Shown here: piece after piece, positions 1 to 62,389 of the stretch
Numbering within the stretch: position 1 is the first letter of the stretch
Layout of the letters: each line of letters starts with the position of its first letter
Source of the DNA: Paraspadella gotoi
Lineage: Eukaryota > Animalia > Chaetognatha
NCBI GenBank assembly: GCA_051294375.1
Contig: CM119263.1
Coordinates: 21,560,494 to 21,624,493 of the forward strand
Length of the DNA: 64,000 bases
Reading direction: 5' to 3'
Notes under the pieces: generated by a model
Told to the model about the DNA's origin: nothing
Database searches by the model: none
What the model saw: the letters and a program-made list of their open reading frames with translations, nothing else
Made by a program: the position numbers and the translations under genes

Positions 1-249
1 ATCGCCACACTTTTGTAAAACTTTATCATAATTCATAATAATTTTTATTTAAAAAAAAACGGTAAGTCACAGCCAAACCTATAAAAGCGTAGTAGTTTTT
101 TATATATGAAAACAGCGTGACGGAGACGACGACGACGACGACGACTACGTCACAAAGAAGCAACCCTAAAACATTATAGCAAGCCTTGACCCGGCTTCGC
201 CGGTCAAGGCTCGATAAAAATTCTTTGAAACAATATACCATTTCATTAT

Positions 250-303
250 AGCTTATTTATTAAATGAATGGATAATTTTTATATTGGTTGTACCAATTTC
301 ATA
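250..303. repeat. Short dispersed repeat
   Basis: AGCTTATTTATTAAATGAATGGATAATTTTTATATTGGTTGTACCAATTTCATA is identical at ~37260-37313. Inverted degenerate copies lie at ~2806-2860 and ~17667-17690. Confidence 0.75.
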
Positions 304-2175: not shown

Positions 2176-4027
2176 ATGGTCGAATCATCGGTGGTGCCTT
2201 CGGGATCTTCGGGGGCATTGGCGGCGCGCCAACAAACCTCGGTGCAGCACGCCGTTATCGAGACGAATGACGGTCGCAAGTTCGAGACCGGTATCATCAA
2301 TACCAAAATTACCGCGGTGACGGACGAAGGGATCGTGGAGAGGGAGGTCAACTGTACGAGAGATAGTCAGTTCTCAACCTCGGAGAATAGAGGTGTGCTT
2401 GCTCTCTCTTTCTCTTTATCTCTCTCTCTCTCTCTTTTTCTTTCTCTTTGTCTCTTGCTCTTTCGTTATAAACTTATGTGTCAAAAAATATTGGCGCACA
2501 TTTATTGAACTATGGTGGACTAAAATCCACCAACCGTTCATCAGCGGCCATTGGTGCAGGAGGCAAGTCATTCGCCTCCCAACCCAAAGGTCCGGGGTTC
2601 TAGCCCAGTGGTCGCCTACCAGTTAAGAGGGACGGGGCGCTTAACCCGCCTGTAACATGGTGTTACAGCCTGATCCGAAGCTCAGGGACTGCTTATATTG
2701 AACAGTTCTGTCACTGACATATAACAATAATTACTGTCTCTTCAGAACTCAATTAAAAAAATCTAAAAAGTTAAATAAAATGATGGTTAATCGGTGATTA
2801 CTGTTTATGAAACTGGTACAACCAATGTCCAAATTATTCATTCATTCAATAAATTAGCTCCCTTGCCCATGACTTCCGTCCGTCCCACCTTAGCAAAAAA
2901 CTCCAATAGCTCGTGATTGGATGGATGGATTGGAAGAGAAATTTTGTGTGTGGGTAGGGAAGCGTGTGATTGAGCTGGACATGAAGTTTCGATGGAATCG
3001 TCCGAGTGGAAATGAGTTTAAATGGAAAAAAAAATTATTTAACTATTTGAACGCCATTTACTCATGAGTGGATGGGGCGATTGACCTGAAATTTTGTATG
3101 TGGGTAGTAAAGTGTGTGATTAAGCTGGAAATGAAGTTTCGATGAAATCGTCCGAGTGGAAATGAGTTTAAATGGAAAAAACAAAAAACTTGTTTCACTA
3201 ATTGATTATGCTTCTTTTTCCTTTTATAATAATTGTAAATGCAAAATGTATTAATTAATCAAATAATTAATCAAATAATTAATTAGTTAATTAATCAATT
3301 AGTCAATTAATTAATCAATAATTAATTAATCAGTCAATTAATCAATCAAAACAAACATTTCGGATCAAATTAATTAATTGCCTAATCAATTAATTAATTA
3401 ACTTAAATTAATTAACTTTAATTAATTAATTAACTTTATTTAATTATTTCCTTAATTATTTAATTATTTCATTAATTAATTAATTAATAATTACCGATAA
3501 TGATCGTGATTGTTTGGTCAAACTTGTTCAAGAAATGTTTCAAATTCTACATTTCATCTTCTTCCAGCCTAACACGGTAACCATAATGACAAGATCTCCG
3601 CCGCCTCGCCCGTCCAACTACTTGTTCCTCGCCCTTTTCACGATAATCTGTTGCTGCTGGCCGCTTGGATGCGTCGCTCTCTGCCAGTCTCTGAGGTCAA
3701 CCTCGAATTACGACGAGGGTGAGTTCGATTCTTGATGGATCACTCTGAATTCTAATTGCCTTTTAAAACTTGGGCACCGGCGTGGATTTATTATCGGTTT
3801 AGCTTTCGGTCACGCTTTTTTGCAATCATGGCTATTGAAAGTGTGATATCATAGGGAGTTGAAATTTTTCTAATCATCAAGTTCTTTAAAATTGTCATGT
3901 TTCATATCTATTTTGAACTAAGTTTGGAGAGTTATTTCGTAACAATATCAATGTTCGTATTTGTTTATGTTTTATTTACAAAACAAAAACGTTTTAATTA
4001 TATGTCGCTTTCTCTATCTCTTTTAAT

Positions 4028-4083
<56 letters not shown>

Positions 4084-6369
4084 CGGCTCTCCCCCGCTCT
4101 CCCCCTCTCTCTCTCTCTCTTTTTTTTTTATTTTTTTTTTTACAAAAACATTTTTATATATATTGTGGGCTGAGCAATGTAAAAGACAATGCGGCAAGCA
4201 AGGCTACGTCCGGCGCCAAAGGTACTGCTGATTCTTTGACGAGTAAAAGGGCTGTGCAGCTTCTCTCTCTCTCTTTTAATTATTTTATAAAGCTCTCTCT
4301 CTCTCTTTTTCTCTGCAGCAGCTGTCCAGCGGCTCTCTCTCTCTTTTAATTATATGTCGCTCTCTCTCTCTCTCTCTCTTTTTTTCTTCTGAATAAGGGT
4401 AGCCCCTGTCAACGGGGTGAATCAAAAATTTTGAATGAGAACATGCTCAAACGAAAATTTAAATATTTTTAAGTATACTTTCAATGTACAAATAATTTCT
4501 TATATGTCTCTATACCCAAATATTTATTTTTTTAAAAGGATTTGGACACTATTCAGATTCGTCTAAAAATGAGTTCAGCTCTGCAGCGGCGGTCCAGCGG
4601 CTGTCCAGTAGGGTGGAGTGATGAAAAGAGCGATGGAACAATATTTTTTTGCTGCCTTTGTATATGTAATAAAAAATAATTAAGCCTTTTTTCAAAAAAA
4701 AATTGCATAACAGTATCATTATTTGAATTTTCTTTATAGTAATATCCTTATAAAATCATAAAATTTCAAAATCATATTTTTTTAATTTTAAAAACAGTTT
4801 TGGATTCGCCGGAAAAAACTGAAAAACTTTTGGAAAATATGTTACATGATATTTTTAGGTTAAAGCTGCGAAAAATGATTAAAAAGTTTCATCATATAAT
4901 AGTTTTTACTACAAAGTGTAAAAAAGTAGAGAATTTAACTTTTTTTTTCATTTTTGACGCTGAAGACATTGAAATTTTTAATAACATATTTTTTATTTTT
5001 GATCTAACTTTTTGTAAAGAATCAGAATCTTTAATAAAATTTTTTTTTAAAAATCTTTAATAAAAATTTTTTTAAAAAATTTTTGAAATTTTTTTGATCT
5101 TATAAGAATATTACTTAACAAAGTTTGGAAATATTTTTCGTCAACGATTTTATTTATTATACGGACATGTTTCGACTCTTCATTTCGAGTCTTCATCAGC
5201 GGTAATGATGCATTAACAAATTTGTGTAAAAGAATATTACTATAAATATATTGTAATTAATGATACTGTTCCCTAAACAATATAAGCAAAATATTTTTTG
5301 TTCTCCTTAATCATACTATCTCACGTTTAAATATCCTTGTTTGATCACTCAAATAAAATTTATGTTCCCCAGTGCTCCACTCTACTGTCCAGTTTCTCTC
5401 TACCTTTCTCTCTCTCTGATTATTTTTTTCCTTCTAAAAACTTTTATTTTCGCCATTTATTCCGCGCTTTTTTACGTGTATAAAAAAAATCAACATGACC
5501 CAATTTCACACGGCGGAAACGTTATGTGTATAAAAAAAATAAACTTGACCTAGATCACGGATAACGGATAACGGATAACGGATAACCAATATAAACGAGA
5601 GAGACCTAATAATGCGTCTCGTTTGCAGGAAAACTTTCGTTGTAAATAAAGTTCAATCGTCTTGACCTAGATATCACCACCGTCACTAGGCGACGAGTAA
5701 ACAAGTAAACTAGTTCCAGCTCTGCAACATCTGTCCATCTTCTTTTTCTCTCTCTATCTCTCTCTCTCTCTCTTTTTTTTTTTTTTTTACAAAAAAAAAA
5801 TTTTATTCACTTTTTTTCGCTTTTCTTTTGTGAATCAGCAGGGCGCGAACCCTAGTCCTTTGGATTGGGAGGAGCTCGCGCTACCTCCGGCGCTACCGGA
5901 CGAGTAAAGGGGCTGTTCAGCTTCTCTTTCTTTATTTCAATTATATGTCGCTCCCGGATTTTTTTATTAATTTTCTTTGATAGTGGGATCTGGCTCGATC
6001 ATGAGTCTTTTAAGATTTTTATTCTAGAGTTTTAATTTCTCATTGCAAGCAAACTAGATCGAAGTACTATATTCCGAAAATATATATATTCCGTACACAG
6101 CTTAGGAAAATATTGATGGCATAGTTAAAAAAATTTTCTGGGTTAATAAGGTAAGGCAAAGCAAGACTTTTCTTGATTAATAATGTATAAATAAATTAAA
6201 ATTGAAAGTAGTCGTTTTCAACTTTTTTATCTTTGCTATAGGCGACATCGACAATGCAAGGAGTTTGGGGAAATCTTCGAGGTGCTGGTCCTCATGTGGT
6301 ATTTTCTTTGGCCTCGTAATTTACATCGTTATTGTTGTTTCGTTTGCCACTCGCAACCTAAGCGATTGA
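2176..6369 (+). CDS. CD225/dispanin (IFITM/PRRT/SynDIG-like) membrane protein; 3 coding exons ~2176-2346, 3568-3718, 6242-6369
   Basis: Exons 2 and 3 join in phase 1 (G|gtgag ... tag|GC) and give PRPSNYLFLALFTIICCCWPLGCVALCQSLRSTSNYDEGDIDNARSLGKSSRCWSSCGIFFGLVIYIVIVVSF. This is the CD225 pattern: CC-x-PLG, GD-x-x-x-A and a second hydrophobic segment. Exon 1 (MVESSVVP...VERE) is phase-compatible but less certain. Confidence 0.85.
2544..2615 (+). promoter_or_regulatory. tRNA-derived (Gly-CCC-like) internal Pol III promoter inside the LTR; also at 17880-17951 and 54078-54149
   Basis: Acceptor-like stem GCGGCCA/TGGTCGC, A-box-like TGGTGC(A/C)GGAGG, loop CTCCCAA and B-box-like GGTTCTAGCCC. The anticodon stem is broken, so it is not a functional tRNA. 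Confidence 0.7.
2619..2692 (+). ncRNA. Twister-like ribozyme (type P5) in solo LTR; predicted cleavage at 2642/2643
   Basis: Same core as 17955-18028, with an 8-bp P3 (CTGTAACA/TGTTACAG). The only loss is the terminal P5 pair. Confidence 0.72.
3250..3492. repeat. (TAAT/TTAA)n low-complexity tract
   Basis: Directly visible degenerate tetranucleotide repeats. Confidence 0.8.
5156..5206 (-). ncRNA. Minimal type I hammerhead ribozyme, Penelope-like-element style
   Basis: Minus strand reads attaccg-CTGATGA-a-GACTC-gaaatgaa-GAGTC-GAAA-CATGTC-cgtataat: intact core, 5-bp stem II, palindromic ACATGT stem III and a GUC cleavage triplet. Confidence 0.7.
5837..5900 (-). mobile_element. tRNA-derived SINE-like head related to the LTR's tRNA module
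   Basis: Minus strand TAGCGCCGGAGGTAGCGCG..CCTCCCAATCCAAAGGAC..GGGTTCGCGCCC shares GCCGGAGG, CCTCCCAAxCCAAAGG and a B-box with the LTR. A related fragment lies at ~4201-4262. Confidence 0.5.
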
Positions 6370-11900: not shown

Positions 11901-14579
11901 TGGGGTGAGTTATTAGTTCATCGTTGGTGAATGTTAGATTACAATATGAAACTTCCGTATTATTTCTATCAATTTGTAAAATCTTGTCAGTGACCTGCTT
12001 TACAAAAAGAAGGAAAAGCGTTGGATGGATACGGGGGACGTCGTTAAAAATCCGAAGTTGGCCCAAGGTGTGAATTTTATTTTAGTATTTATTTTTAAAA
12101 AGTTATAATTTTACTTTCGCCGACTAAGGTTAGGGGAAGTTTAAAAGTAATTTTGAGTTAAAGCTAGTTAGTTAAAAAAAACAGTTGGATAATTTTTAGG
12201 TCAAGGATCGAGCGGTAGATAATTTTTATTTTTAAATTTTTTTTAATGAAATTAATGTAACCAATTTATAAATGATATATTCATGACTTTTGACAGGCTT
12301 TGGTGGTTTAAGGCCTCCCTCACATTATTTAAGTCAAAATCCCAGTCGGCGAAAGTAAAATTTGACCTAAAGAATCGTGACGGGCGTTGGTAATTTTTTC
12401 CCCATTTTAGTCCTCCGAGCCGTGGCCCGCGACGGCCCCAACGCCCTCTACAATGGGGAATTCACGGACCGCGCCGTCTCAGAAATCAAGGGTCGCGGCG
12501 GCATTCTCGTCAGGCAAGACTTTGAGAATTACCGCGCCGTCGAAAGGAAGCCGGCCGTCTACACCATGAGGAACGGATGGAAGATTTACGGGTCTCCGCC
12601 GCCCACTTCGGCGGCTGTTGTCGAGTTTATCATCAACATTATGGAAGGTTCGTCATTTATATTGACGTTTAGCTATATTTAAAGCCCATCTCATTTTTGT
12701 CCATCATTTTAAACTTGTTTTGTATATTGTACAAGAACTATCATTTGACGAACGATTGTAATGTCGATCTTCAGGATATCCGATCAACGAATCGACGCCA
12801 TTGGACGAGGAGGCTCTTCTTCTTCACTTCCACAGGTGCTTTTGTGGTTTTTTTTATCTTTGTGTACTTAATCCGTTCACAGTAGCAATTCGAATTTTTT
12901 CCTTTGCCCTTTTCCTAAGATTCGTGGAGTCGTCCAAGTTCGCCTTCGGCAAGCGTAGTTTGTTTGGTGATCCCAAATTTGTCAACGTCAATTCAATCGT
13001 CAAAGATCTCGTCTCTCATGGTTTCGCCGAATCGATCAGAAAGTAAGTCTTTCACGGGATCCTCAACATTTCCTTCGTACTTGCACGGCTTAATCAAAAA
13101 CAATTTTTATTACATTATTCACAGGCAGATCACTGATCGACCGCATGCTCCGTGGGTCTATGGTCACTCTGAGGCCGTTCCGCTAACGGGAACTAGTCAC
13201 AGCAGCCTTTTGGTAAATTTCATTTTTATGAAAAATTACGAAATTTCTGTTAGTTGTAGCGCTTAATGTTGTCCAAGATGTTTTACGCAAAAACAAACAC
13301 AGCTTTTGTTTTTCTCGCTTCGCGCAAACGCGCTACCTTTCGTGACTGTTCTATTGTTTTCCAGGCTCCAAACGGAGACGCGGTTGCCTTCACCTCGTCC
13401 GTCAACGGGTATTTCGGTACGAAAATCATCGGAGAGAACACGGGAATCATCTACAACAACAACATGCAGGATTTTGCCATCCCGGGCAAGCCGGACATGC
13501 ACGCGTTGCCTCCGGCTCCGACGAATCTCATCGAGCCCGGTGCGTGTGACGGTCTGATTGCCGCGTAATCCGAAATTGACATTGATGATATTAAATTACT
13601 TGACATTAACAATAAATCCAAAATGGCGATCTTTTGTTGGTTTTAGTTACTGTGAGTTTATTTTCGTTTTAGTAAGTCAGCTTTTCAAAACTGTAATTTT
13701 CACCACTACTCCAAAACCTTCCCCCCTCCAGGCAAGCGAATGATGAGCTCCATGTGTCCCATCATCGTGACAGACGACAAAGGAAAAGTCCGCGTGGTCA
13801 TCGGCGCCAGCGGAGGCGCAAAAATCATCACATCCGTCGCTTCGGTGAGACGCTTCTGAGAACGGGAGCGATTGGGCGTTGGATTTTGAAATTAGTTTTC
13901 CAAAGTTGGTTACCCTTTTTGGGTCAAGACCGAAAAAAAAATATTCCGATCAAAATGATTCTTTGGCCTGATTTTCAGATTTCATTCCCTTTGCTAACGA
14001 ATCAACTAACTTGCCAACTTTATACTAGTTTGTCGTCCATTCTCGTAAACTTTTTCCTATAAGTTGTGATTTACAACTTTCCCTACTCTTTTTCCTTACC
14101 CCCTTTCCTCACCGCCTCCCTAACCGCACCCTCTTCCAGGTTCTAATCAACCACCTGTTCTTCAAACAAAACATCAAAGAAGCGATCGACATGCCCCGCC
14201 TTCACAATCAACTATTCCCCGACTCCACAGAGTTCGAGGCGACGGCGCCCGAACCCGTCGTCCAAGACTTTCACGAGGAATTCCACCAACCCATTAAGGT
14301 AAGTTAAAGCCATGGGTAATTTTTATGAGTAATTTATGTTAAATTTAATCTTCTAAAAATTAAAATGTATAAGTGATACTGCTATTTCTAGGATTGTTTT
14401 CAGTTCAACTAACCTTATTCGTAATACTTAAAAAGTAATTAAAATTACCAGTCTTTTCCCTTTCACAGAAATCGCGCGAATGGCGAATCGGAATCGTCCA
14501 AGCCATAACGGTCGACGACAATGGCGTCATCAACGCCAACTGCGATTACCGCAAAGGCAGCGCCCCCGCGGGATTTTAG
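8902..14579 (+). CDS. GGT: Gamma-glutamyl transpeptidase (glutathione hydrolase), type II membrane protein, ~16 small exons
   Basis: Spliced fragments carry the GGT motifs in order: N-terminal TM (AFYGLAGAFVLAFIIVLAV, ~9330-9417), AAVASD..CSKVG (~10771-10874), GGSAVDAMIA..HSMGIGGGF, IDARDCAP, SIAVPGELQG, GGIL..DFENY, SPPPTS, FVESSKFAFGKRSLFGDP, catalytic GTSH (~13190), TSSVNGYFG..GIIYNNNMQDF, PGKRMMSSMCP, IGASGG, PRLHNQ, DYRKG..AGF*. Stop codon at 14577-14579. Confidence 0.95.
9838..9912 (+). mobile_element. Degenerate tRNA-derived SINE-like head in a GGT intron
   Basis: GC-rich island with A-box-like CAGCCGGGTGGCTA and B-box-like GGGTTCGCGCCC. Confidence 0.35.
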
Positions 14580-15211: not shown

Positions 15212-15391
15212 GAAGAGACAGTAATTATTGTTATGACAGAACCATTCAATATAAACAGTCCCTGAGCTTCGGATCAGGCTGTAACACTATGTTACAGGCG
15301 GGTTAAGCGCCCCGTCCCTCTTAACTGCGAGGCGACCACCCGGCTAAAACCCCTGACCTTTAGGTTGGGAGGCGAATGACTTGCCTCCGGC
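15212..15391 (-). mobile_element. 5'-truncated LTR copy on the minus strand
   Basis: The reverse complement matches the LTR from GCCGGAGGCAAG to ACTGTCTCTTC; the twister region (15255-15328) is retained. Confidence 0.85.
15255..15328 (-). ncRNA. Twister-like ribozyme (type P5) in truncated LTR
   Basis: The reverse complement retains UAA, GA-CGG, UCCGAAGC, P3 and P4; the terminal P5 pair is G-U. Confidence 0.68.
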
Positions 15392-17846
15392 GGCACTTTT
15401 TTACATCTATGCCCCCTTGCTGCGGCTCTTGAAGCAGCAGATTAAAACACGTGCTTTTGCTGCTTCCATTGTCGCTTTATGCATCATTCCTTTTGTCGTC
15501 GCTCTCACCGTCGCAACTGCTTCCTCCATCGTTCAAATTATAGTTGTCGTTTTTGTCGATCTCGATCCTGACCGATGTCACCCAGCAAGTCAGTTTTCAT
15601 CTCTGATTTTATATCGAAATAAAAAGGATTGGCTTATTTTCAATTCGCCGTCCGGGATTTTGCGGTCGGTTATTTGTTTTTTGCTTTTTAGTAGCAACAT
15701 ATCTCGTTGCGGAAAAATAAAAAAGACGCTGTTAAGGTTAAAAAAAATTGATTACGAATTTTATTTCGAAACCTCGCCTATTCCCTAACTACCCCTAATA
15801 CTTAACCACCCCTAATCCCTAACGAGTAACCACCCTTACCCTAATTACTAACCGTTTAAAATTTAAAACATTAATTTTTTTTTTATTTCGTTGCGTTATT
15901 TGTTTGGTGTATAATGAATTGTTTACATACGAGTTTTAAGAAACAAAGTTCGGACATATTTCGGCATCAATCAGTGCAAAAACGTATTGATTTGTAAAAT
16001 AAATATTTTTAGACTTTGAAGTTTATAAGGTCTATAAATCAATTCATTTTTGCGCTGATGAAAGCTTACATTGAAGAATGTCTGAAATGTGTTTTATTTT
16101 CTACCTCAAACATAAAAATAATAATTAAAATAAATTTAAAAAAATTGTATTACTGCACAGTGTATATTATTGTGCGTACTAAGACTCGACGCTAAAGGGA
16201 AAACAAAAATGGATAACAAAGTACCGACCGTTGGTATCTAAGGTTGGTAGCGGACGCCGAATAATAGCTTGCTCGATAGTCATTTTTTTAACTAAGGTTA
16301 TTAAGAGTGAAACTAAATTTTTGCTCAACTGTCGCACCTACCCTTACTTTCACCGGTCGTTTGGAGATTTTGTGTCACTGATAAAATCGAACTAGGTGGA
16401 TCTCAAATTTAGGTTATATACATTGTTTTTATATTTAAAATTGAATGTGGGGGTTTTAACGAATTTCCTTGGGCGGCCCAAATTATACAAACGTGACGAT
16501 AAAGATGACAACGAAGTCTGTTTCTCGGAAAAAAACCTTTATCAGATTAACCGAAAGAAATCAATTTCTCTGTTACCTTTGTTTTAATGACTAAATATTT
16601 CTCGTTTTGGGTAATTCCTTTTGTTACAAATTTTGTTCTCTTGGCGAAAACTGATAGAATTTCTTAATAATTCTCGATAATTGTCACCATAAAAAAACAC
16701 CAAAAAAAAAATTAACTCGACGTATTGTTTTTGTACCTCGCTCATACCAAGGCTTTTTTCGCCGAAAATTTTGCTTTTAATCATTTTAATCGTTTTAAGG
16801 TTATAATGTACACCGATTTCAAAGATCAACGGCTATGGAACGAGAGTTTCGCCGTTTTATGCAGCGAGATTGGGATTCGTCGGGCAGGATACGCCTCTCG
16901 AAAATTCGTTCGCCCACTACTAAAGCTTCCAAAATATTTGCGGTCCAGCGCTTTCATTGTTTTACGACGAAAAAAGATAACAAATGAGGACAGAAATCAA
17001 TTCGAGTGAAGAATCCAGTTTCGGTGACACGGTCTGTTTGATTCAACATTAACACTTACCCGCTAGATTTTAATTGTAAGTTTAGGGAGCATAAACTATA
17101 AGTTTAAGTTTCAACAAGTTTGAAAAATAAATTTTAATCTGATACTTATGCTTTTCTGTTTATGACCAGTGTCCGCGATTGATCCCTAATTAAATTTTAT
17201 GGAATTATCGTTTTATTTTTAGTGCTATTAGTCTTGCTCTATGCTTATTTAACGTTTGAACTGTCAAATTGTTTCTTTTATTTAAAAAAAGTTTGAAAAA
17301 TGAAAAGACCCATGAGAGAATTAACTAATTAATTTTGTATTGTTAAATTTTCGTCCTGTCAGAGCGGCACCGGCACCGTCGCTCCTTCTGGAAAGAAGTG
17401 GAAAGGTAAGATTGAGGCGAGGTCGTTGACACCGAGTGACGCTTTTTTATCGGTCGTCGGGTCACGCATCAGTCTCATTGTCGGGAAAAAAAAGTTTTCG
17501 CGTGAGAAAAAAAAAATATCCGTTTTCATCCTGGTCGTCATCGTCGAAGTCGTGCTTAAAAAAAATATTGTTACTTGGTTTTTTAAGATGTTAGACTAGG
17601 TTTTTCGCAACAATAGCAGAAAATCGAAAATTCGTTGCGCCCCTTTTACGGGGTTGTGAAATAATTTATGAAATTAGTACAACCAATATATTGTATTCTT
17701 ATTGTACGTAGAATCTTCAAATGTATTACAACAATGAATGTCCATTTTTAAATTTTGGGTCAACCCCGAGAAAGTTGTAAAGTTGTAATCAGCTTGGTTC
17801 TCAGAATACACGGATTTCAAATGGGAGTGAAATGAAAAGAGTTGTT

Positions 17847-18080
17847 TATGGTGGACTAAAATCCACCAACCGTTCATCAGCGGCCATTGGTGCCGGAGGC
17901 AAGTCATTCGCCTCTTAACCCAAAGGTCCGGGGTTTTAGCCCGGTGGTCGTCTGGCAGTTAAGAGGGACGGGGCGCTTAACCCGCCTGTAACATGGAGTT
18001 ACAGCCTGATCCGAAGCTCAGGGACTGCTTATATTGAACGGTTCTGTCATTAACACTTATCAATAATTACTGTCTCTTCA
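17847..18080 (+). mobile_element. Solo LTR of the twister/tRNA LTR element
   Basis: Full 234-bp unit flanked by TSD TGTT (17843-17846 and 18081-18084). Confidence 0.9.
17955..18028 (+). ncRNA. Twister-like self-cleaving ribozyme, type-P5 permutation (best-preserved copy); predicted cleavage at U/A 17978/17979
   Basis: GCAGTT(P5) AA GAGG(P2') GA CGG(T1) GGCGCT TAA CCC(P2) GC(T2) CTGTAAC-atgga-GTTACAG(P3) CCTGA(P4) TCCG AA GC TCAGG(P4') GACTGC(P5'). The L4 CCG pairs with CGG and GC pairs with GC. P1 is minimal and P2 is 1 nt short of the usual 4 bp. Confidence 0.75.
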
Positions 18081-19828
18081 TGTTATAACTTTTAACTGAT
18101 TGATTGTGATCAATATTAGTACATTTTATAAATTGGAAATTGGACGTTTATATTTTTTTAAAGCAAATTGATAATACTTTATATCATAATAACTGGTGCG
18201 CTTTTTTTCCAGCTTTTTTTACAATATTTTTCCCTTCTTATTTGATATTTCAATTTTAAACTTATTGTAAAAAAATTGAAACAAATATTTAAAATATTTT
18301 ATATTCATTAGTTAATATAATATTTTGGGAGTATGTAAAAAAATTTTATTAATAGATTTTAAGGTTTAGTTAGGCAACAGGTTTTTGCCAGATTATTATT
18401 TTTTTATAATTTTTTTTTACGCTGAAATTTTTATTTTTTTAATTAAAAAAAATTAAAAAATGAAAAAGGCTGTTAATGTGGTTATGAATAAGCTTTTGAC
18501 ATTCAGATTATTTAGACACATACTCCACTATTTATATTTGTAAGATAAACCGAAATTTTTAAATATTTTTTTTTATAAAAATATATTTTATAATAATGTG
18601 TTATTCAAATACAAATTTTTTTTTTTAAATTCGACCATGCAATTGATGAGCACATAACTAAGAATGTAAGCAAGCAAGATTATTGGCAGTTGGAAAATGA
18701 TAAAAAAATTGTTATGGTTTTTTTACCAAAGTACAAAATCTGCAGTTGTTATAACAAATAATTTAGCCACAGTATTTGATCCTTTCATTTCACTCCCATT
18801 TGAAATCCGTGTAATTTTGTAACTTTACAAAGTAATCAAGCTCTGTCTACCGTTTTATTCCGTTGTTTTGTCTCGTGACGTCAATTTGTTTTTTATACTC
18901 GGTTTAATCGTGAGGAACTCGAGACATAAAAAAAAGCTATAGAAAATTAGCGAATTGTGACCAATGAAACTTGATCATTGACTGGAACTGAATTCCTCTT
19001 TCTTTTCGTTGTCGTCGTCGCCGTCGTCGGCATCGCGTGATTCTTAGCGAAGAAAGAAAGAAATACGAAAAAAAAAACCATTTTGGAAACAGAAAAAAAA
19101 ATTAAAATGTGGCTAAGGTGCGACGGTATGGCGGTAAAAAATTATTCTCGCTACTGGATGCGGATGGAATGTCGGAACAAGGATCGTTCAGATTTCGAAC
19201 AGATATCATTTAATATTGACGAATGTAGCTGTAGTATTTCATACCCCGTTACTCGTTCGAGAATCAGCAGCACCTATGGCGCCAGAGGTAGCACGAGCTC
19301 CTCCCAACCCAAAAAAATATATTTGTACAATGTACAGGGCTTGGATTAAAAGTTTTTGATTTTATTTAAATGGCAAGAGAATTTTAAATATTTTATAACA
19401 AACGTAAAAGAGCTCAAATGAAAGCTGTCTATTCTAATTTTCAATTATTAACTTAGATTATAAATGAAATCAATATCCCTCTGCGCCTAAATAGATCTAA
19501 TGTTGAGTCCCCAGTAACGTAAGATTTCCATAAAGTTTGCTGCATCAGATGCGACTTGAAAAGACAAATGTGGAGGAGAAGTGATAATATCAACTCATGA
19601 GCGATTTAATGGCTAAGCTTTTGGACAACTTCAAAATTTAAAAAAATATGATTTCAAAAATTATAAATACGGGTGAGAAGACAATATAGAAAAATTAAGG
19701 CAAAATAATTATCAAAGAACATGTCCACGTCCCCAAGCAACATTGATGAAATTACAATTCAAAAAAGCTTAGCTATACCTTATATCAAAATTTATCCACC
19801 AACCGTTCATTTGCTTATATCAAAATTT

Positions 19829-19967
19829 ATCCACCAACCGTTCATTTGCCTCCTAACCCAAAAGTCCGGGGTTCTAGCCCGGTGGTCGCCTAGCTGTTAA
19901 GAGGGACGGGGCGCTTAACCCGCCTGTAACATGGTGTTACAGCCTAATCCGAAGCTCAGGGACTGCT
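19829..19967 (+). mobile_element. Internally deleted, end-truncated LTR copy overlapping a 35-bp tandem duplication (19779-19848)
   Basis: ATCCACCAACCGTTCAT is joined directly to TTGCCTCCTAACCC, which removes the A-box; the B-box and twister region (19893-19966) are retained. Confidence 0.85.
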
Positions 19968-21216: not shown

Positions 21217-24057
21217 ATTAACATAAACGCCATAAAAATTACCCGAGGCATTCGCAATTAGAATAAAGATGAAAGATGGCCGTTTTATGAATGCTCAGAG
21301 ATTTCCCGGAAGCCTTTTCATTTTTTTTTTTTTTTTCAGGTAAAAAATAGTACACACTCAAATAAAATCTTTTTTTTTGTCAAAGACTTAGTCCTGTGTA
21401 AAAATAAACGCGCCACTTTATTTCAGACTTTAAAAATCACCCTATATACTTGAATTTTTTTAAAAAATTTAAAAATTATTTAAAGTTTATTGAAAGATGA
21501 TAAGTTTGGCATAAATTTTATTAAAATTTGGCTATTCGTTTAGGAACAATTATTTTTTTAAAATGAAGTATAAATTACTTGATAAATGTAAAATAATCTG
21601 ATAGATTTAACCTTTCTTCTTCTGATATTTTATAATACTTAAAATAATTTAAAAATTTAAAAAAATAAAACTGGATATCCAGAGGGATAGCTGGATAACT
21701 GGATTACCCCAAATCCCTAAATGATAATCGTACGGTTATTAAAACATACGATGAAAGACAGGTCCATGATTCTGAAGCTTTTACACGGATTTCAAATGGG
21801 AGTAAAATAAAATGATCAAATATTCTAACTAAATTATCTGATATAGCAACTTCAGACTTTGTACCCTGATAAAAAAATTTACTAAAGTTTTTTTTATTTT
21901 TCAACTCCCAGTAGTCCAGCTTACTTACTTTCTTAGTTATGTGCTCATCAATGGTATGATCAGGTTTAAAAAAAAATAATTTGAATTTGAATAAAACCTT
22001 CCTGTTATAAGATGTAGTTTTTTAAAAAAAATCAAATGTTTTAAAATTTTGGTTCATCTTACAGATATAGACATTGAAATATGTATGTGTCTGAGCAATC
22101 TGAATGTCAAAAGCTTTTTCATAACTAGCGGTAGCCGACCAAATTCAAATTTTAATGGGAACAGCATTAAACTAATCCATTATTGGTATTAATTATTGTG
22201 TTAAAATATTTTTTTGCAAAAATGTTCCGAACCATGAGTAATTTGCTAATTAATATTACTATATCGCTATATAATTTCAAAATTTTTTTGGATATTTTAA
22301 GTTTTTTTAATTGATTCTGATAGAGCTTAAAAAGTTAAGCAAAAAATATAATTACAACTTTTTAAAATTTTGATGTTTTATTACTAAAAATTAGTAAAAA
22401 CTGCTAAAATCATCGGATGATGATGATGATGATTTTTTAAGGTTTTTCCCAATTTTAACCCACTTATCATCAAAATATTGAAAAAAGAATTGTACTTTGT
22501 GTAGATAACTTTTCATACGCTATTTGAATCTGCTTTTAAAAATAATATATATATCCTATCTATAAATAAATATTAAAAAATTAATTACTAATGCTTCTTG
22601 CCATTTTAGAAAATTTTGCTACATTGAAAGTTTTCTCAGAAATGTATGAAGTTTCATTTGGAAAGGTTCTCAAATCAAACTTCTGACCCACCCCATTGAC
22701 GAAGTTTGGCTCTATCATAACCACAATGACAGCACTTTTAATTTTATAGTTTTTTTAGTTAAAAAAAATCCGTGTAGATAAAAATCGATTTTCCTGTTTG
22801 GTTTTGGAACACGCAAGTATAAAAAATTATTTTTTTTTGCACAGGACTGTATTGTTCGAATATTTTTCTCATTTTTATTCTTAGATTTTAAATTAATTAA
22901 ACTTAGCCAATGTTATTAGATGCATTTCTTTTTTTTACTAATGTTATCACCGCGTACTAAGAGCAGCTGGGATTCTGAACTTAATTTAACTTAATCTTGT
23001 CTCAAATGTAAAAAAAAGTCAGACGGCTATAAACGTGTTTTGTCAAAAAAGTCAAAAATGTAATTATTTTACTACTTTTTAAAATAATAATTCAAATTTG
23101 CCTAAAAAGAATAAAGAATAACCAACACAATAGGTCACAATTCTATTTTTTTTTTTTTAATTTACGAATTTTTATAGATTTATTAACAGATTTACAAAGA
23201 TTCGTTCAAAAAAGTTGAGAGGACGAAATATAATTACATGTATATAAATTATGTATCAATTTTAAAATCTTATGAAGAGTGTACTATGTAAAAATGAATA
23301 GCCTACTGTATATTTAAACAATAAACATTTAAAATTTGTACCGGACATAGCCAAGGTTCATCCCGGAATTAATCATAGTTTCCTGACACTTGCTCTCTAC
23401 CATAAAATGTCACTTTCATTCCATCAACTCACCCTCGATCATTCCCTTCGCAGCCCCTTCTTCGATCGAGCGATTCCGAGCTTCCTCCTTTTCGATGACG
23501 TCGTCGTCGTTATCGTCGTCGTTGCGAACTTCACCCACAATACCAAAAACTTTCTTTCCCCGTCGTCGTCGTCGTCGTCGTCGTCGAAAGCCTCATCGTT
23601 CGACGATTCCTCCAAAAAAAGAAGACGAAGATATTTAAAAAAAGACAAATCGACGAAGAACTGGATTTTTGTCTTCGATATCCGGGACTGGATACTTAAG
23701 AATCCGAATAAGTAGAATTGCGCGATCGAAAAAAGGGCAAAATGCCGTCAATCGACGGTCAATGACTTTGTCAAATAAGATGACAAAAAAATAAAATGAC
23801 AAAACTTGATATTTCTAAAAGGCCTGCTCGTTAACTGGAATCTACTTTTATAAATAAAATAATTAACGCGTGAAAAAAAATAAAGCCTAAAAATTACTTC
23901 TCACGAACTAAAACTAAAAATTAACAACAAAACAAAACTAAAAACTATGTTGAAAGAATTTCCGGCTTAAAACGAATTCGTTAAATGAACTAAAAAAATC
24001 GATTTTTCGGTGGAAAATCGAAATTTCAAATCAATTTATTTGTTTCGCTTTCGCGTC

Positions 24058-24855: not shown

Positions 24856-27800
24856 GCCCAAAAATTCCTTCCCTACTTAGTTTACTCCTTCTTTTCAAGA
24901 TAAAATCTCTACTAATCGCGAGTCAAATCTTCAAGAAGGCATCGCTTTCGGTCTTTCCTTTCTCTCTCCTTCGAACAGGGATAACAATAAATTATCCCCG
25001 GATTATAATATTCCCCCCCCCCAAAAAAAAAGGGAACGAAAAAAAAAATAATGTTAAGGAGAGATTAAGCGAATAAATTCGGTTGGATGAATTGAGGGCG
25101 TTGTTTTCGTCGACGACTCCGTGAGATAAGAGGAACGCCTTCCATTCATCTTTTGTTTTCCCGTTGGTTGTGAATTCACGTGAGATGCGTGGAATTCCTT
25201 AAATGCCACTCGGGATGAAGTCACGAGAAACCCATAGCATAATTTCTGCAATATATGGAGACTAATTGAATTTATTGTTTGACGGGTGGTAAAATGATGA
25301 CCAGTATGAGATCGCATATGAACGTGAATGTAATTCGATTCTTCGATACTTCACACAATAATTCCATTTTTCCGTCATCCCTCTTACAGGAACTCGGGTC
25401 AAAAGGAGACGAAGAAATGGAATTTCTCCCCAATTCCGAAAACTTTATCGCGATTCCAAAGCCTAATCCAACCCCGAACTTACCCCCAAATCAGGATCAA
25501 AACCCAAATTCTAACCCCAATACAAACTCAAAATCTAATCAAATCTCTAATTCATACCCAAAGTCCAAAGCGAGATCGAACACTAAAAAATCCAGCAAAA
25601 GATCGAAAGAAAAATCTCTCGATTCATCTCACTCTTTGGACTTTTGGAAATCTTTCAAGGTTTCTAATTTCGAGACCGCTTCCAAATCTATGAACGAGTC
25701 TGAATCCGTAAACGTTTCTAAATCTTCCCACGCATCCAACTCAAAAAACTTTTTAAATCTTTCCAACGATTCCAAACCCTTAAACCTTTCACACACTCCA
25801 AATTCTTTTAACACATCTTTCGCTCTGAATTCTTTGAAACCTTCCGAGTTTTCCAACAGACCAACTCCCTCCCGAGAGACGAACGAAATCCGTCCAGTGC
25901 CTCCAACCGACCGTTCGAAAAGATCGTCGATTCGGACTCGAAAAATCCAAGAATTTCAGGCGATCAAAGGCTCGAGTTTATCGCCGGGCACTGGAGCAGA
26001 CCTTTCCGTTCCGCGGTCGCCCGAAAATTCGCCCGGCAGCCCGCCCAGAGATTTTTGGAGCGGAGTAGATGTTAACGGGTGGACGGAGAACGACAAAGGA
26101 GCGAAGGGAACCGAGGCAAACGAAGACAACAACAACAAAAACGACGACAAAATCGATGATACTCTGTCCGGGAAGCATCTGTTGTGGCACCCAGACAGCG
26201 CCGGGTGCCGGGACAAGTCTCACTACGCGGCTCCACGAGACGATTCGTCGAAAGGGGCGTGGGCAGAGGGGGAGGCGGCGGAGAGGTTGGCGTGGGAATT
26301 GTCCCGGTTCGAGGTGGAGGGGCAGGAGGAGGAGGAGGAATCTGTCCATCACGTGATGAAACGAAACGCTGATCAGGTGGCTTTTGTAGGTTTTTTGTGC
26401 TTTTTTTGTTTTATTTAATCAAAAGATTTATATTGTTTGTATCAAATTCTTATTTAATTTTACGTTACATTTAAAAAAAAAAAACAGGCCGGCGATAACC
26501 TTTCGCCTACGTGGGAGGACGGTTCCGGCGAGGAGCCGACCGACGCCACGCCCCCTACGACGGATAATATGACCGACGTTCCGACGGCAAAAGTGCCGAG
26601 AGGTCTGCCGGAAACGACAGCGTCCCCCAACGCGACCCAGGCGGAGATGACACAGGCTGGAGTCACTACGGGGCCGTCGCCAACAACACAGGCTGGCGTC
26701 ACTTCGGCGGCGGCGGAGACGACGCTGGCCGACAACACGATGTCGTATTGCAACGACGACGAGGACTGCAACATCGAGAGCAACGAGCGTTGCACGAATT
26801 TCCAGCGGCGCCGCAGCGTGACTCTCGTACGTCGCCGGACGGGGCTGCAGCCCATTTGCAAGTGCATGCCGAATTTCATCAGATCTAAGTTGGAGACGAC
26901 CGAGTTGTCGAATGAGTGCGAGGCGATTGTCGAGGTGAGATTGGATTTTTTTTACGTATACCATGATGGAAAAAAAAATTGTCCTGGTTACTTTCCAGCT
27001 ATTTTTCGAGATTTTAATGTAAGAATAAAAAAAATTAAATTTAAATATCAAGAAACTTTGGCCTTTTGTGATTCATATGAGCCATGTCTCATTTATGTAC
27101 GACAAAAAATATAGGAGTTCCATGCAAAAGAAAATGAGTGGTCCAAAAAAAAGCTTATGTCTTTATTTTTTTCATATCTACTTTTATCACATCGCCAAAG
27201 CCCTGGCGATATCGCCATGGCGAAGTCGCCAACCAACTAGAACCACACCTACGACTCGTGCGTGAATCGCCGGCGACATCGCTATTTGATTGAACTACAA
27301 CTTAGGATATTACTTTAAAAACAAATTAATTAATAATATTGTTATGCAATTTTTTTTTAAAAAAAGGCTTAAATATTTTTTATTACATATACAAAGGCAG
27401 CAAAAAACATTGTTCCATGGCTCAATCTTTTTATCACTCTACCCTACTGGAGACGTCACTGAGGGTGGAAAGCTCCTAAAGCCAACAGTAAGATGCCATA
27501 TCCTAATGGGCATCACAAGCAACCCGGCTGTTGCCATGATGCAATAAATAATTTTATGTTGTTGAAAAATAATTATTTTATTCAGTCTTAAGGAGGTTAT
27601 ATTATATATTAAAACTTATTTATTAACCAAAAAATATATTTGACAATGAAATTAACTGACTTTCAAACCGCGACAATTTTTTTTCCATCATGGTATGATT
27701 CTGTAAATGACAGAAATGTCAAAAAACAAGTGTGCTACAACGAGTACTATTGTCTAGTATTAAAATATTTTTTTCCGATTATGTGTCTTCATCGTCCCAA

Positions 27801-29175
27801 CCTTCCTGCCAAACAGGTCGTCAGCGTGACACTCGTCTGCCCCGTCGAATTCAACACCATCTACGCGGACAAAACCTCTTCGAAGCATCTCGAATTCCTC
27901 TTCTACATTCAGAACGTCTATTGCGACTACATCTCTATTATAATCAAGAGAACCTGTTTTTGCGAGATCGAGACAATAAAGAGCGGTTCTACAGAGATCG
28001 AGTTGCTCATCTCCGTTGCCGCCGGAAATAAAACAAAGAACAACGCCACAGAGTCCACAACTCCCTTGCCCCTTCTAACGAACACCACTCAACTTCTCCG
28101 CGAGGCCGCCAAACGCGCCTTCAACGATTTAATCGAGGAAGTCAACCTGGCGACGATCGATCCAAACGTCACGTCGACGCCAGGACTCGATCCCGGCGTT
28201 TACCTGGGCCCGTTCCGCGCCGCCGTCACTCGGCTCTCCGTCAACGAAGACTTTTATGTCCGTGAGAACCCCGTCCCGTCGACAAACCCTTGCCTAGATC
28301 CCGACCGCAATTATTGCGACAAGGACAACAACGGCGCCGAAGCCGAGTGCATCCCGGGTCCGGATAATAAAACGTTGACCTGTCGATGCCGAGTCGGTTT
28401 CCACGACGTCTCCTACGTGCCACGATCAGCGCCGGGCGAGCACTGCTCCCCCGTCTGCTACGAAGGATATTGCCTGAACGGTGGACGTTGTTACAACGAC
28501 AAAACTGAGCCGCTCTGCGATTGCAACGCCTGGTACAACGGTGTCCGATGCGACGTCGATCTCTGGGCGCTCTTGATTAGCGGCATCGTGTTTCTCTCGT
28601 TCTTCCTCGTCCTCATCATCGTGGGGTTGACGCGATGCGCGAGGAATCGTCTCGAACGTAAAGGGTCTTATTCTGTGGCGGAGGAAGACCGTCGCCTCTT
28701 TCATCGCGACGCCGCCGTCTCCCGTAGCCTGGATCCGTTCGATTTGACCTTCGATCCCGGGGAATACGAGTTTCTCTATGCGCCTGTGGACGCGCGGACT
28801 GGGGAGATCGTCGCTCTCGATCCCAATCTTCCGCCCGAAGAGAATCTATACCGTCTGGTGCCAGAGATCGACGTAGGGGATCCGCCGTGGCCGGCGCTGC
28901 GACGCCTCGCCGACCCTGGCGGCGGACGCTGGGAAGACGACGTCACGCAATCGATTTTTCTGCCCATTCCGCGTCCAACTCTGCGGCGGCGGTCGGACGT
29001 GCCGACGCCGCCCGGTTCCATGACGCGGTCGTCGTCGGGGGCGTCGTTGGTGATCTCACGCAGAAGTTCGACGGCGCCGGATGTCGACCTCGCTTGCGTC
29101 GGCCTCTATCCGAATTTGTTTGCCGATGACGAGACGTTACAGATTCCGAGGCCTTCGGTCATTACCAAACCGTAA
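24058..29175 (+). CDS. Single-pass mucin-like protein: S/T/N-rich region, EGF, SEA-like, EGF, EGF, TM, cytoplasmic tail; exons ~24058-24264 (tentative), 25390-26376, 26488-26934, 27817-29175
   Basis: Phase-0 GT-AG joins link ORFs 25279.., 26569.. and 27640... The product has a Thr-rich stalk, a Cys-spaced EGF (CNDDEDCNIESNERC..CKC..C), a SEA-like segment with KSGSTEI, two EGFs (NPCLDPDRNYCD..CRCRVGF; CYEGYCLNGGRC..CDCNAWYNGVRC) and a TM (LWALLISGIVFLSFFLVLIIVGL). The first exon is uncertain. Confidence 0.8.
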
Positions 29176-30468
29176 CCGGCGATGGCGACGAAGACGACGA
29201 CGACGGCGTTAACGCCAGAATTTTAACCATCATACACTGCGGCGCAAAAAAAAAATAAGACACTTGTTAGCTCTAAATACCCCACTATTTCTTTTTTAAT
29301 CTTAAAAAAATATTTATAAAAAGTATAGGTTTTTTAAAAATTTATAGATTGATGCAAAAAAAAATTAATTGGTTCAGGCAGTAGATTACAGCAATATTTT
29401 AAAGTCAAAGTCTGAAAACGGAATTAGGAAAAATGATTTTTGGAGGTTAAGTTCATGATATTTTTTTTCTGACTGATAACAGTGTAACAGTGTAACTGGT
29501 GTCATATTTGACTCGACGTGAGTTGATACGATGTTAAAAAACATCTTCCGGAATTTAGCTTTAATTTTTTTCCGTAATTTATTTTGACGTCCAATAGACC
29601 ATGGCGCCGAGACAACAATGACCAACTGGTCATGATAAAAACTTATGATTATTGATTTTTTATTAGGTTCATTCTTAGAAATTTCTCTCCTCCCATTTGC
29701 ATGCAAAATTACTAAGGAACGTGCCATATGGTCAAAATATCTGTGTTAAAACTGTTGAGAGAAAAAGATAAGGAAATATTGCTACTTTATTGTTTCCGTT
29801 TCTGACTCTCATTAATTGAATACTCTCGACGCAAAGATTTGTACTCATTGCTAATTATTTGAATGATAATAGTGAAATATTTACTCTGACATTTTATTTT
29901 ATTTCCTATCATCTTATTAGTTAGAAAAAGAAACCCATCAAAGCTATTAAACTGATTTTTATGAATCTTTTTCATTATCTCTCATTCTCTCTCTCTCTGT
30001 TTATAAACAAAGGTTACGTAGTACTGGACGACCTGTGGATAAAATTGGCTAACTTGGGTATTTGGTAGTTATGATCTCTCATATTTGCTTTTAACTTAAA
30101 ATATTTTGTAAAAATGTTTCTCATGGAGAATGAAATTATGAACGAAAAATGAAAAACACGATTAACTTTTACAGTAAACAGCATTACAATTGTAAAGCTC
30201 TATTTTGGGATAATCCTTTCACTCGTACCAAAGGTTCGTCTTCTGAGAGACAACGTAGGAACTAGGATCTGTTTTTTAAGATACTCCCGGGAAGACGTGA
30301 ATTTCTTCTGTTGCTAAGCGTCCCTCTCTGAAACTAAGGGATAAAGAGGAAGATCTTGTCAATTTTCTTTTTCTAATGTTTGACGTCCAATCATTATCAA
30401 CTGGAATTCGATAATTTTCGCACGAAATTTCCTCGTTTTCACCTTGTGTAATTTTAAGGTCGTTGAAA

Positions 30469-31628
30469 ATGGATGAAGATAACGAGTCAGAAAAAGTCGA
30501 AACGGAGGAACGGACGATCGGCGAATCTCAATCGAAAGATAAAGAAAAAAAAGACGAAAAAGAAAAAGAAAAAGGGGGTAAAGAGAATATCAATGAAGAA
30601 AATGATGTCAAGATGTCGGATGAGAGCGAAAGTAAAAATAACGACATTATTGTGGAGGACGCCAAAAGAAAAAATATTAAAAATGATGGTGAGGAAAATT
30701 CCGGTGAAAATATTGGCGATGAGAACTATGTAAAGAAGGACGAAACAAATAAGGAAAATGCAACGGAAGGTGAAGAAAAAGGTCATGAAAGGAATGATCA
30801 CGAGTTAAATGAACAAGAAGACGAAAAAAGCGAAGTGGATAAAAAAGATACTAAAAATGATGACGAGAATGAAATGAAAGAATCAAGATCCGAAATAAAT
30901 GGAGAAAATGAGGAAATTAAATCTGTTAATTCCCCTGCGAGGCAAAATTCGAAAGGCAATAAAGACGGCGGAATAAACGACCAAAATGGCAATGAAAAAA
31001 ATCAATCAAATGATAACAATAGTGAAAACTGGCGAGTCGATGGAAATGAGCAGACAACAGAAAACCCAACATCAAATGGCGATGGCGTCGCAGAAGCAAC
31101 AACAGCATTTGTTTCGACCAAATTGCGAAAAGAAATGGAGTCCAAAGCCAACGTGGGCACCATTCTCACTTGGCAGTACGCGGCGGCCATGGCTCAAGAG
31201 GGCGCGGCGACGGAATCTAGCGGAAATGACGCAGAACCGGAAGTAGAGTTGACCTCTGGCGCCGAGGTGGGCATGGCGGCTGCCTATGCAACTAAAAAGG
31301 GAGATCTGCAGCACAGAGAAGAAGGAGAAGTCGAAGAGAGCGAAGGCGAATCCGAGAAGAATTCAGAGAAAAAAGTGGAATCTCAAGTTGAGAATGAGAT
31401 TAATGTTGAAAATATAGCAGCCTCAGATGCAGAAGTAGTTCCTGTTTCTAAAGGGAAAGATGCAGGGGAAGCAGTGGAAAAGGCGAGTACCTTTGATGTG
31501 GAAACGAATCAAAAGAAGAATGAAAAGCGTGAAACACAATCTGAAGGTGAAACAGGTAACAGTTAACGAATTTTAAAATTCTGTGTACAACCATGTATTC
31601 GATATATTTATGATACTCGATGCAATAT

Positions 31629-31715
<87 letters not shown>

Positions 31716-36512: not shown

Positions 36513-38032
36513 CTCGTCGTCTCCTTAAAAGTCGACACCGTTGGACGATACTCTCCCTCGAATAAACCTTAATTGTTATGTACTATTCTCACTTTTTACA
36601 TCGTAATAAATGTATAATGTATATATATTATCATAAGCAATGTTTCCTTTTCCAACGTCGTCTTATGGGCATTATTATTCAAAGGGGGTCAACAACTTTT
36701 TGGGAAAATCGAAATGAAAATAAATGGGTTGGCTCCTGAAATCACTTTTACATTTTTGAGGGGAACGTTTCTGATTTTTTCATGTTGCAAGCGAATTAAG
36801 TTCCGTGCTAAAAATGATGATGTACAGGTAAAGTCCGGACGGTTAGCTAGGAAAGGGATAAAAGGAATTAATTTGACAAAATAATAAATTCGAAAAAGAA
36901 TCTTAAACATCGTTGGATTCCCAGACGTCGAGATCAAAACTTCAACCCCGCAGGAATTTACAGTTCGTGTAAAGCCGATTTGAATTGTGTGCACTTCCAG
37001 ACAGGTTTCTAGATTTCTAGATCCGAAAGGAAAACCATTTATTTTTTTTTTCTATTTTTTTTATAACGTACATACAATTGAAACATTCTTTGAAATATTT
37101 TCCACTTCATTGATAGTTAAGCCAGGTACTCTGGGAGTGAATAAACAAGACTGTGAGAGAGTCTTGATTGAAAGCTTGCAGGGACCTGCTATGTCATTAT
37201 CTTGTAAGAGTGATGGAGGCCTTAAACCACCAAAGCCTGTCCAAAGTCAGGGGCAAGATAGCTTATTTATTAAATGAATGGATAATTTTTATATTGGTTG
37301 TACCAATTTCATAGAAAAAAGGAATTTACGTACTATTAAAATTTCCCCTCGGGTAGACATGGATATAGATCCGGCTAAGACATGAAATTAAACCTCATCA
37401 AGCGTTCCGACTCGTTTTCCTGTCAGGCGCCGAGGGATCAGTCGACGGTGGAACGCATGTGGACGAGCAGTTGCGACAATTGCGCTCAGTCTACAAACCC
37501 TTGCTGCCCCGCGATCATAATCTCAAGCGCGTCGTCAACAGGTTCAATCAAAGGCAACGAATCTACTTAATCTGATCTAATAAACACGATTTTGAAACAC
37601 ATTTAGGGGAACACCTTGGAAACAAGTTTAATCTCTACGGTCTACCTCATCAAAGCTGCGGGACTCTTCGACCCAAAGTTTATGTAAATTGTAAATTGTT
37701 GTTTCTTTTTAGGTGAGGTTGATTCTCCTGCGATGATAGTCATAACTGATAATATTAATAAAAGACCTTTATTTTTTACTAACAAATCTTTAGCCAAAAA
37801 AGGTAGCGCGTCAATTTTTTTTCTATTAAAAAAGTTTATTGTGACTTCCATATATATATAAGATGAATATACAGTTTGGTATAAATTACAGAATGAATGA
37901 ATGTGAATTAGAGAATAAAATGAGATTAAATTTTTCTTCCGACATTTTTTTGAGGGTGGGATCGCGTCAATACCATTATCTAATGCTTCATCGAATCATT
38001 ATCATTGTCATAATCGCCATCCTCAATCATTA

Positions 38033-45162
<7,130 letters not shown>

Positions 45163-48315: not shown

Positions 48316-62389
<14,074 letters not shown>

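Follow-up and report, generated by a model that had tools for sequence, protein, structure and literature searches.

A twister-like fold in the LTRs of a small non-coding retrotransposon of Paraspadella gotoi, and a tentative double-ribozyme mechanism for its mobility

A non-coding LTR retrotransposon (TRIM) of 642 bp in Paraspadella gotoi has, in its 234-bp LTR, a motif whose parts and pairings support a twister-type fold. The window, that is, the whole 64,000-nucleotide stretch of DNA that was analysed, holds several copies of this LTR as well as an unrelated repeat with the same ribozyme architecture. In place of P1 the motif has a short palindrome, and comparison among families points to a P1 that forms between two copies. 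On a tentative reading, which goes further than any of its parts, the element would be the first LTR retrozyme of an animal: a TRIM that depends on Gypsy and brings its own Pol III promoter, derived from a tRNA, and whose RNA would become a circle through an obligate double twister of a dimeric class that is missed by Rfam and may also be present in Naiad tails.

Parts and predicted activity of the twister-like motif

The motif and its copies are referred to as family A. Its parts in the solo LTR at 17847-18080 are as follows.

17955..18028, + strand: type-P5 twister-like fold of family A (sequence, descriptor, covariation with other families)
17955-60 and 18023-28, + strand: strands of P5 (sequence)
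Between P5 and P2', + strand: AA linker (sequence)
17963-66, + strand: P2' GAGG with bulged A17964 (sequence)
17967-68, + strand: G17967, the predicted general base, followed by A17968 (sequence)
17969-71, + strand: T1' CGG (sequence)
17972..17977, + strand: self-complementary 6-nt connector GGCGCT at the P1 position (predicted 6-bp duplex with the connector of a second copy)
17978..17979, + strand: predicted cleavage site U17978/A17979 within UAA (twister consensus position, from the available part of PMC8501958)
17981-83, + strand: P2 CCC, 3 nt (sequence)
17984-85, + strand: T2 GC (sequence)
17986-92 and 17998-18004, + strand: strands of P3, 7 bp (sequence)
18005-09 and 18018-22, + strand: strands of P4, 5 bp (sequence and fold)
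18010-17, + strand: L4, 8 nt, closed by P4 (sequence)

The initial annotation had described a type-P5 twister here, and every element that it named was found at its coordinates when 17955-18028 was checked in the sequence; a twister-type fold, present as described, is supported. The minimum free energy fold of family A formed P5, P3 and P4 (z -2.0) and drew T1' and T2 into a different hairpin instead of the twister fold. Among the six window copies, the TAA at 17978-80 (the N^AA triplet) was kept in all six, the general-base G and the A after P2' in five, and pairing of both T1 and T2 in four.

The copy at 17955-18028 keeps the pseudoknots and the catalytic positions, which are the features that natural twisters need, and its predicted ribozyme is therefore likely to be active. 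In the available parts of two studies (PMC11662667, PMC5113685), natural twisters tolerated defects in P1 and P2 and did not tolerate changes in the pseudoknots or catalytic positions; 94% of 1948 natural twisters tested were active, including ones with P1 or P2 imperfections (PMC11662667, same part).

The host element

The LTR copies, the single two-LTR element and their parts are listed below.

17847..18080, + strand: solo LTR with the motif, 234 bp, TATG...TTCA (six-copy alignment; loose ends of contigs from four runs)
17843..17846 (left) and 18081-18084 (right), + strand: target-site duplication TGTT (sequence)
17849..17868, + strand: 5' hairpin of the LTR (fold)
17868..17876, + strand: arm of a 9-nt inverted repeat, with its pairing partner at 18035-18043; the tRNA-like head and the ribozyme lie between the two arms (whole-LTR fold)
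17880..17951, + strand: tRNA-like head with a 7-bp acceptor-like stem, predicted Pol III promoter (home-made descriptor)
17888-99, + strand: box-A-like sequence inside the tRNA-like head
17932-41, + strand: box-B-like sequence inside the tRNA-like head, one base off in this solo LTR
53636..54277, + strand: complete two-LTR element, 642 bp, with the duplication GTAA outside (sequence)
53636-53855 and 54045-54277, + strand: its LTR pair (20 of 219 aligned bases differ)
53857..53869, + strand: PBS, matching 12 of 13 bases of the tRNA-Trp 3' end (sequence; tRNA end from the available part of the Helenus supplement)
54003..54012, + strand: 10-nt inverted copy of the LTR 3' end at 53846-53855 (predicted long-range helix beside the PBS in the RNA)
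54031..54042, + strand: PPT, two bases 5' of the 3' LTR (sequence)
2511..2744, + strand: solo LTR copy with the duplication GAAC, core intact (sequence, descriptor)
15212..15391, - strand: 5'-truncated LTR copy, core intact (sequence, descriptor)
19842..19967, + strand: partial LTR copy with one P4 and one P5 mismatch (sequence)

Alignment gave six LTR copies in the 64-kb window, and all three complete insertions were flanked by 4-bp target duplications (TGTT, GAAC and GTAA). The internal part of the two-LTR element is 189 bp long; its PBS begins one base past the 5' LTR, and the 10-base inverted copy at 54003-54012 is exact and lies just upstream of the PPT. Two 48-base tandem copies occur within the internal region (53888-53980), and a 35-base tandem duplication (19779-19849), which takes in part of the LTR 5' region, abuts the partial copy at 19842.

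The motif at 17955-18028 belongs to a solo LTR, and the sole two-LTR copy in the window is decayed. One of its LTRs has lost the general-base G, one T2 base and the connector palindrome, and in the other (3') LTR two T1 bases are changed, at 54210 and 54211. Variation per position across the family was taken from 40 listed rows of 122 and from the six window copies; among these rows, the intact T1 base made up 95-99% of depth at 54210 and 77-93% at 54211 in four runs.

In four runs of the same organism, contigs pile up on the element (14,649 in run X1) and end in unrelated flanks at both LTR ends. The PBS was seen again in the loose-end consensus of run X1. Run contigs also contained a joint at which the 3' LTR runs on into the internal part, which indicates tandem units.

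The tRNA-like head lies directly upstream of the motif. A home-made descriptor for it (acceptor-like stem, GTTC box) was passed by two of four copies and by 4 of 6000 shuffles, and neither ARAGORN nor Rfam called a tRNA in it. No autonomous partner was found within the window: a Pfam search of 13 long ORFs returned no reverse transcriptase and only a fragment of an MFS transporter. Helentron-associated HINE elements have subterminal inverted repeats and an end hairpin and are not known to make a target duplication. Such an identity was considered for the 9-nt inverted repeat and hairpin of this LTR and was rejected, as the 4-bp duplications, the PBS and the PPT contradict it.

Model searches and chance controls

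As the initial annotation had anticipated, standard covariance models miss the motif. The Rfam twister models gave no match to family A at the gathering level, nor at E<=10 with queries of 3001 or 251 bases. Rfam likewise gave no hammerhead match in the family A LTR and no match of a 5S or tRNA model on the stretch; for want of a 5S match, a 5S origin of the P4 hairpin was dropped. The gathering score of Rfam Twister-P5 (RF02684, clan CL00120) is 37.6 bits. Family A is treated as a variant of Twister-P5 and is not filed as a member of RF02684, because this score is not reached, its P2 has 3 nt and its connector cannot fold alone.

A relaxed twister descriptor, which demands NAA, the G-A, both pseudoknots, P2 and P4, was designed with the candidate in view. 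It was matched by 125 of 128,605 dinucleotide shuffles of the LTR (about 0.1%), a figure that is generous for that reason. Shuffling the whole window 184 times gave 117 matches (0.64 per window) compared with four in the real window, and three of the six window copies of family A failed the descriptor.

These figures bear on whether the likeness to a twister arose by chance in a GC-rich structured repeat, for example one derived from 5S or tRNA. The silence of the Rfam twister models, the fitting of the descriptor to the candidate and its rate of matches in shuffled windows would all be expected on such an account. It has to contend with the small share of LTR shuffles that match, with the lack of a 5S or tRNA model match on the stretch, and with independent families that share the architecture, differ by compensatory changes and match Twister-P5. 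A chance resemblance is considered very improbable.

Related families and covariation

The only other motif in the window that matched the descriptor belongs to an unrelated repeat, family B.

37199..37259, + strand: family B, the same twister architecture in an unrelated repeat (descriptor; Rfam Twister-P5, 25.8 bits, E 0.0012)
37217-22, + strand: family B connector AGGCCT (predicted cut 37223/37224)

The Twister-P5 match of family B (on 231 bases) lies under the gathering score. Its parts include a 7-bp P5, a bulged A, T1 CCA/UGG and T2 AC/GU. Beyond what the descriptor demands, it has its long P5 and, as in family A, an AA linker, a bulged A in the corresponding position and a connector of 6 nt. 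Relative to family A, T1 is changed from CCG/CGG to CCA/UGG, T2 from GC/GC to AC/GU, and the first P2 pair from C-G to A-U, and P5 differs as well. Copies of family B vary at their 5' ends and have an A-rich 3' end in common. Fragments occur at 12284-12323 (-), 56708-56730 (-), 2806-2875 (-), 248-307 (+), 17667-17690 (-) and 26427-26452 (+).

A metagenome pattern scan in which T1 pairing, P4 and the connector were left unconstrained returned 28 loci. Two of these, L130 and L145, had complete T1 (3/3) and P4 (5/5) pairing, and they scored 24.2 and 15.1 bits against Twister-P5, under its gathering score. The other 26 failed in T1 or P4 pairing, and 11 of them were near-identical copies of one sequence. 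L130 is a 1097-base contig with the motif at 395-436 (-); because 123 bases are common to its two ends, the unit measures 974 bases, and it holds a single twister with a palindromic connector and, after it, AATAAA. Either a circular RNA or a tandem repeat could give such a contig. In L145 a twister with a 4-base connector, also followed by AATAAA, lies at 703-744 (+), 3' of a coding-looking frame. Seven scans of viral contigs (3, 0, 12, 117, 0, 1 and 0 loci) gave no convincing homologue: a loose T1 and P4 filter let through three of 129 viral matches, and the complete architecture was seen in none. None of five matches in prokaryote genomes passed.

Across families A, B, L130 and L145, T1, T2, P2 and P5 appear to change in a compensatory manner, which supports the fold. 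T1 is CCG/CGG in A, CCA/UGG in B and L130, and CCC/GGG in L145, while T2 is GC/GC or AC/GU; in L145 the first P2 pair is mismatched. Covariation here means compensatory differences among the four families, as MAFFT misaligned L145 and part of B. Two earlier proposals are supported by this comparison, namely the type-P5 architecture with a bulged 3-bp P2 and no P1 in cis, and the retention of T1 through a compensatory change.

A palindromic connector in place of P1

The connectors GGCGCU (A), AGGCCU (B), CAAUUG (L130) and CGCG (L145) are fully self-complementary in all four families, and the connector had been left unconstrained in both the window descriptor and the metagenome scan. None of the remaining 26 metagenome loci had a self-complementary connector. 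With GU pairs allowed, the chance of self-complementarity is 0.053 per 6-mer and 0.14 per 4-mer. The joint chance for the four connectors would be about 2e-5 if they were independent, a value that overstates their independence because the families probably share ancestry. The innermost connector pair is Watson-Crick and varies by family (C-G, G-C, A-U and G-C), which folding in cis cannot explain. For family A the connector duplex has an energy of -8.3 kcal/mol, and in no family could the connector of one strand form a hairpin by itself; the Twister-P5 alignments of B, L130 and L145 give P1 a loop of zero bases.

The motif had originally been read as a twister in which P1 is reduced to a connector. 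The connector GGCGCU and the lack of a P1 in cis stand, and it is the supposed absence of P1 that needs revision, in that the conserved palindrome points to a P1 formed between two copies. A precedent from another ribozyme is found in the minimal hammerheads of Penelope-like elements, which are dimeric and have a short, palindromic stem III (PMC6765202, in the part available). Co-folding energy was rejected as support for a dimer because random connectors did as well as natural ones: without constraints, 158 of 300 random 6-mers gained as much or more than the connector of A and 113 of 300 than that of L130, with a modestly better result for B (19 of 300).

Alternatively, a monomer lacking P1 might be active, or only one LTR might be cut. 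Cleavage would then merely set one end of a linear Pol III transcript. Replication would rely on ordinary strand transfer over a repeat of about 100 nt, and a circle would not be required. P1 has been reported as dispensable (available parts of PMC8501958, PMC5113685 and PMC11662667), and the six connector bases might bridge the gap as a loop. There is also no run of four T in two LTR copies and the internal region, compared with the T-rich tails that close many Helenus LTRs shortly past the tRNA-like part (in the part of that source available); this absence was rejected as evidence, being found in 53-71% of shuffles and thus not significant. A lone monomer leaves unexplained both the Watson-Crick innermost pair in four of four families and the 4-nt connector of L145, and it seems unlikely as an account of the element.

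Naiad elements and the origin of the fold

Three Naiad 3' ends in one part of a supplement (PMC8557442, part 22/59) show by eye a P5-type fold with a bulged 3-bp P2. That part was picked for its motif match, and all three 3' ends visible in it have the fold. The Naiad connectors are 20-23 nt long and hold palindromes of 10, 6 and 10 nt, which are off-centre and so give no P1 in register, as far as these three ends go. Word searches of the Naiad supplement with ten and eight bases hit 2 and 25 places, one of them a twister end. The Naiad paper itself reports no hammerheads and does not mention twisters in the portion available (PMC8557442).

Family B resembles these Naiad ends in P4, in T2 and in a common 3' end, and is likely to be a tail from a Penelope-like element of the Naiad type. 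Among the ORFs that precede family B, inspected by eye, none resembled a reverse transcriptase or confirmed a Naiad identity. Family A, in contrast, is part of an LTR element with PBS and PPT, whereas Naiads are Penelope-like elements. The family A motif may be a Naiad-type twister that was captured, together with a tRNA-derived promoter, into an LTR.

An origin of this kind leaves room for the fold to be a passenger that came from a Naiad-type Penelope-like element, or from a SINE descended from such an element, and that is unneeded or no longer active in the TRIM. The same variant is present in family B and in the three Naiad ends of that supplement part (PMC8557442), and half of the window copies of family A fail the descriptor. 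According to the available part of PMC10886601, moreover, Helenus TRIMs probably originate when a SINE inserts into an LTR, and they move without a ribozyme. A mere passenger is nevertheless hard to reconcile with the differences of family A from family B and from the visible Naiad ends in P3, P5, T1, T2 and the connector, with all pairings and catalytic positions kept, or with run depth in which the intact T1 bases prevail at 54210 and 54211 (among the 40 of 122 rows listed). It is considered distinctly unlikely.

Proposed mechanism

The favoured explanation, judged about as likely as not, is that the paired LTR ribozymes share P1, both cut, and yield a unit that is circularised and reverse-transcribed; it draws on the covariation described above and on analogy with plant elements. 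Under this proposal, Pol III transcription would begin in the 5' LTR, at its tRNA-like head, and continue through the 3' LTR. The 5' half of one ribozyme would pair with the 3' half of the other, and the two connectors would form a 6-bp P1 in the canonical register, an arrangement suggested by the covariation that would parallel double hammerheads. The predicted cuts in the two-LTR element are 423 nt apart, and cleavage in both LTRs would release a 423-nt RNA. This unit would lack the terminal repeat needed for strand transfer, hence the proposed ligation into a circle, which could be primed by tRNA-Trp and copied with the reverse transcriptase and integrase of a Gypsy element. A lone ribozyme, be it that of the circle or that of a transcribed solo LTR, would cleave inefficiently; the requirement for a dimer would thus confine cutting to two-LTR transcripts, and the circle would be spared. 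For plant LTR retrozymes, a model with circles and tRNA-primed copying has been described, with solo and multimeric forms as products (PMC4918200, available part). Dependence of the mini-retrotransposon on Gypsy is likely.

Twisters have few assigned roles, and here one would be tied to the copying of LTR element RNA that has no terminal repeat. If the connector acts as the covariation suggests, there would be a dimeric form of twister parallel to the double hammerhead; such dimeric twisters would be missed by curated models and may be abundant in invertebrate genomes. The stated confinement of LTR retrozymes to plants would then fall, if the proposal is true.

Other contents of the window

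Several other interspersed repeats occur in the window, some with inverted ends: 18481-18814 and 21781-22125; 22126-22699 and 61072-61683; 41002-41185 and 46931-47521; and 4604-4748 and 27304-27451. Long exons encode a SEA/EGF mucin-like protein resembling animal mucins (27613-29175, +), an acidic repeat protein (30415-34687, +), a protein with RRPGRPP motifs that are presumably AT-hook-like (43255-45213, -), a 1029-aa low-complexity frame (48316-51405, -) and the MFS transporter fragment (62154-62723, -).

Comparison with known systems

Family A is like Twister-P5 (RF02684) in the order of its parts, the NAA triplet, the G-A after P2', T1, T2 and the 8-nt L4 on P4. It differs in P2, which has 3 bp and a bulged base in its 3' strand compared with 4 bp in the model, in P1, where a 6-nt palindrome without a loop replaces 3 bp and about 14 nt, and in its 7-bp P3. 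Twisters have been linked to retrotransposons in general (PMC13725137, available part). The T-variants of Schistosoma Perere-3, according to the available part of PMC8501958, are also tied to a retroelement and have P3 and L4 sequences similar to those found here, but they are of type P1 with a 4-bp P2 and occupy the 5' end of a non-LTR element of the RTE type, where the target site completes P1. In the dimeric minimal hammerheads of Penelope-like elements and a newt satellite, a palindromic short stem, unable to fold within a single copy, is completed by a tandem neighbour (PMC6765202, PMC7761336, parts available); these belong to another ribozyme class than family A.

In its two LTRs, non-coding 642 bp (<1000 bp), PBS, PPT and 4-bp duplication, the element fits the description of Helenus TRIMs. 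The available text on Helenus/TRIMp3 (PMC10886601) describes TRIMs of less than 1 kb with a tRNA-like sequence in each LTR, a Gypsy-type PBS and, in animals, a 4-bp duplication. According to the same text, tRNA-Trp priming occurs in wasp Helenus, a wasp Gypsy and a wasp Helenus start with the same seven PBS bases (supplement), and Helenus TRIMs are thought to be mobilised by animal Gypsy elements. In the Helenus LTRs available, the tRNA-like part is near the 3' end and the LTR finishes soon after it; the LTR of the present element has this part near the 5' end, followed by a further 129 bases. Twisters are not mentioned in the available part of that paper, and 11 short motifs, from twisters or from the families, were searched for in the available Helenus consensus set, in which line breaks can hide matches, without revealing such a fold.

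A paired-ribozyme arrangement in an LTR element has so far been described, in the sources available, only for hammerhead-bearing plant elements. The available parts of a review and of a 2026 preprint (PMC7761336, 10.64898/2026.07.22.740005) treat LTR retrozymes as plant elements with hammerheads, and in the former, which dates from 2020, metazoan retrozymes are without LTR, PBS and PPT and retrozymes seem promoterless. A literature search, mostly of open-access sources, found no dimeric twister, Naiad twister or twister-bearing TRIM, and single copies may already be catalogued.

With plant LTR retrozymes, as described in the available part of PMC4918200, the element shares its non-coding nature, two LTRs that each contain a ribozyme, PBS, PPT, 4-bp duplications, solo LTRs and tandem units. 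It differs from them in having a twister-like fold rather than a type III hammerhead, an animal host, a smaller unit (423 nt), a PBS for tRNA-Trp and not Met, and a predicted tRNA-like promoter inside the LTR. By analogy, the element would work like an LTR retrozyme without being a strict member of that group, as its fold is twister-like and it has no type III hammerhead. Twister, TRIMp3, LTR retrozyme and dimeric ribozyme are each known singly, and what appears to be new in this element is their combination.
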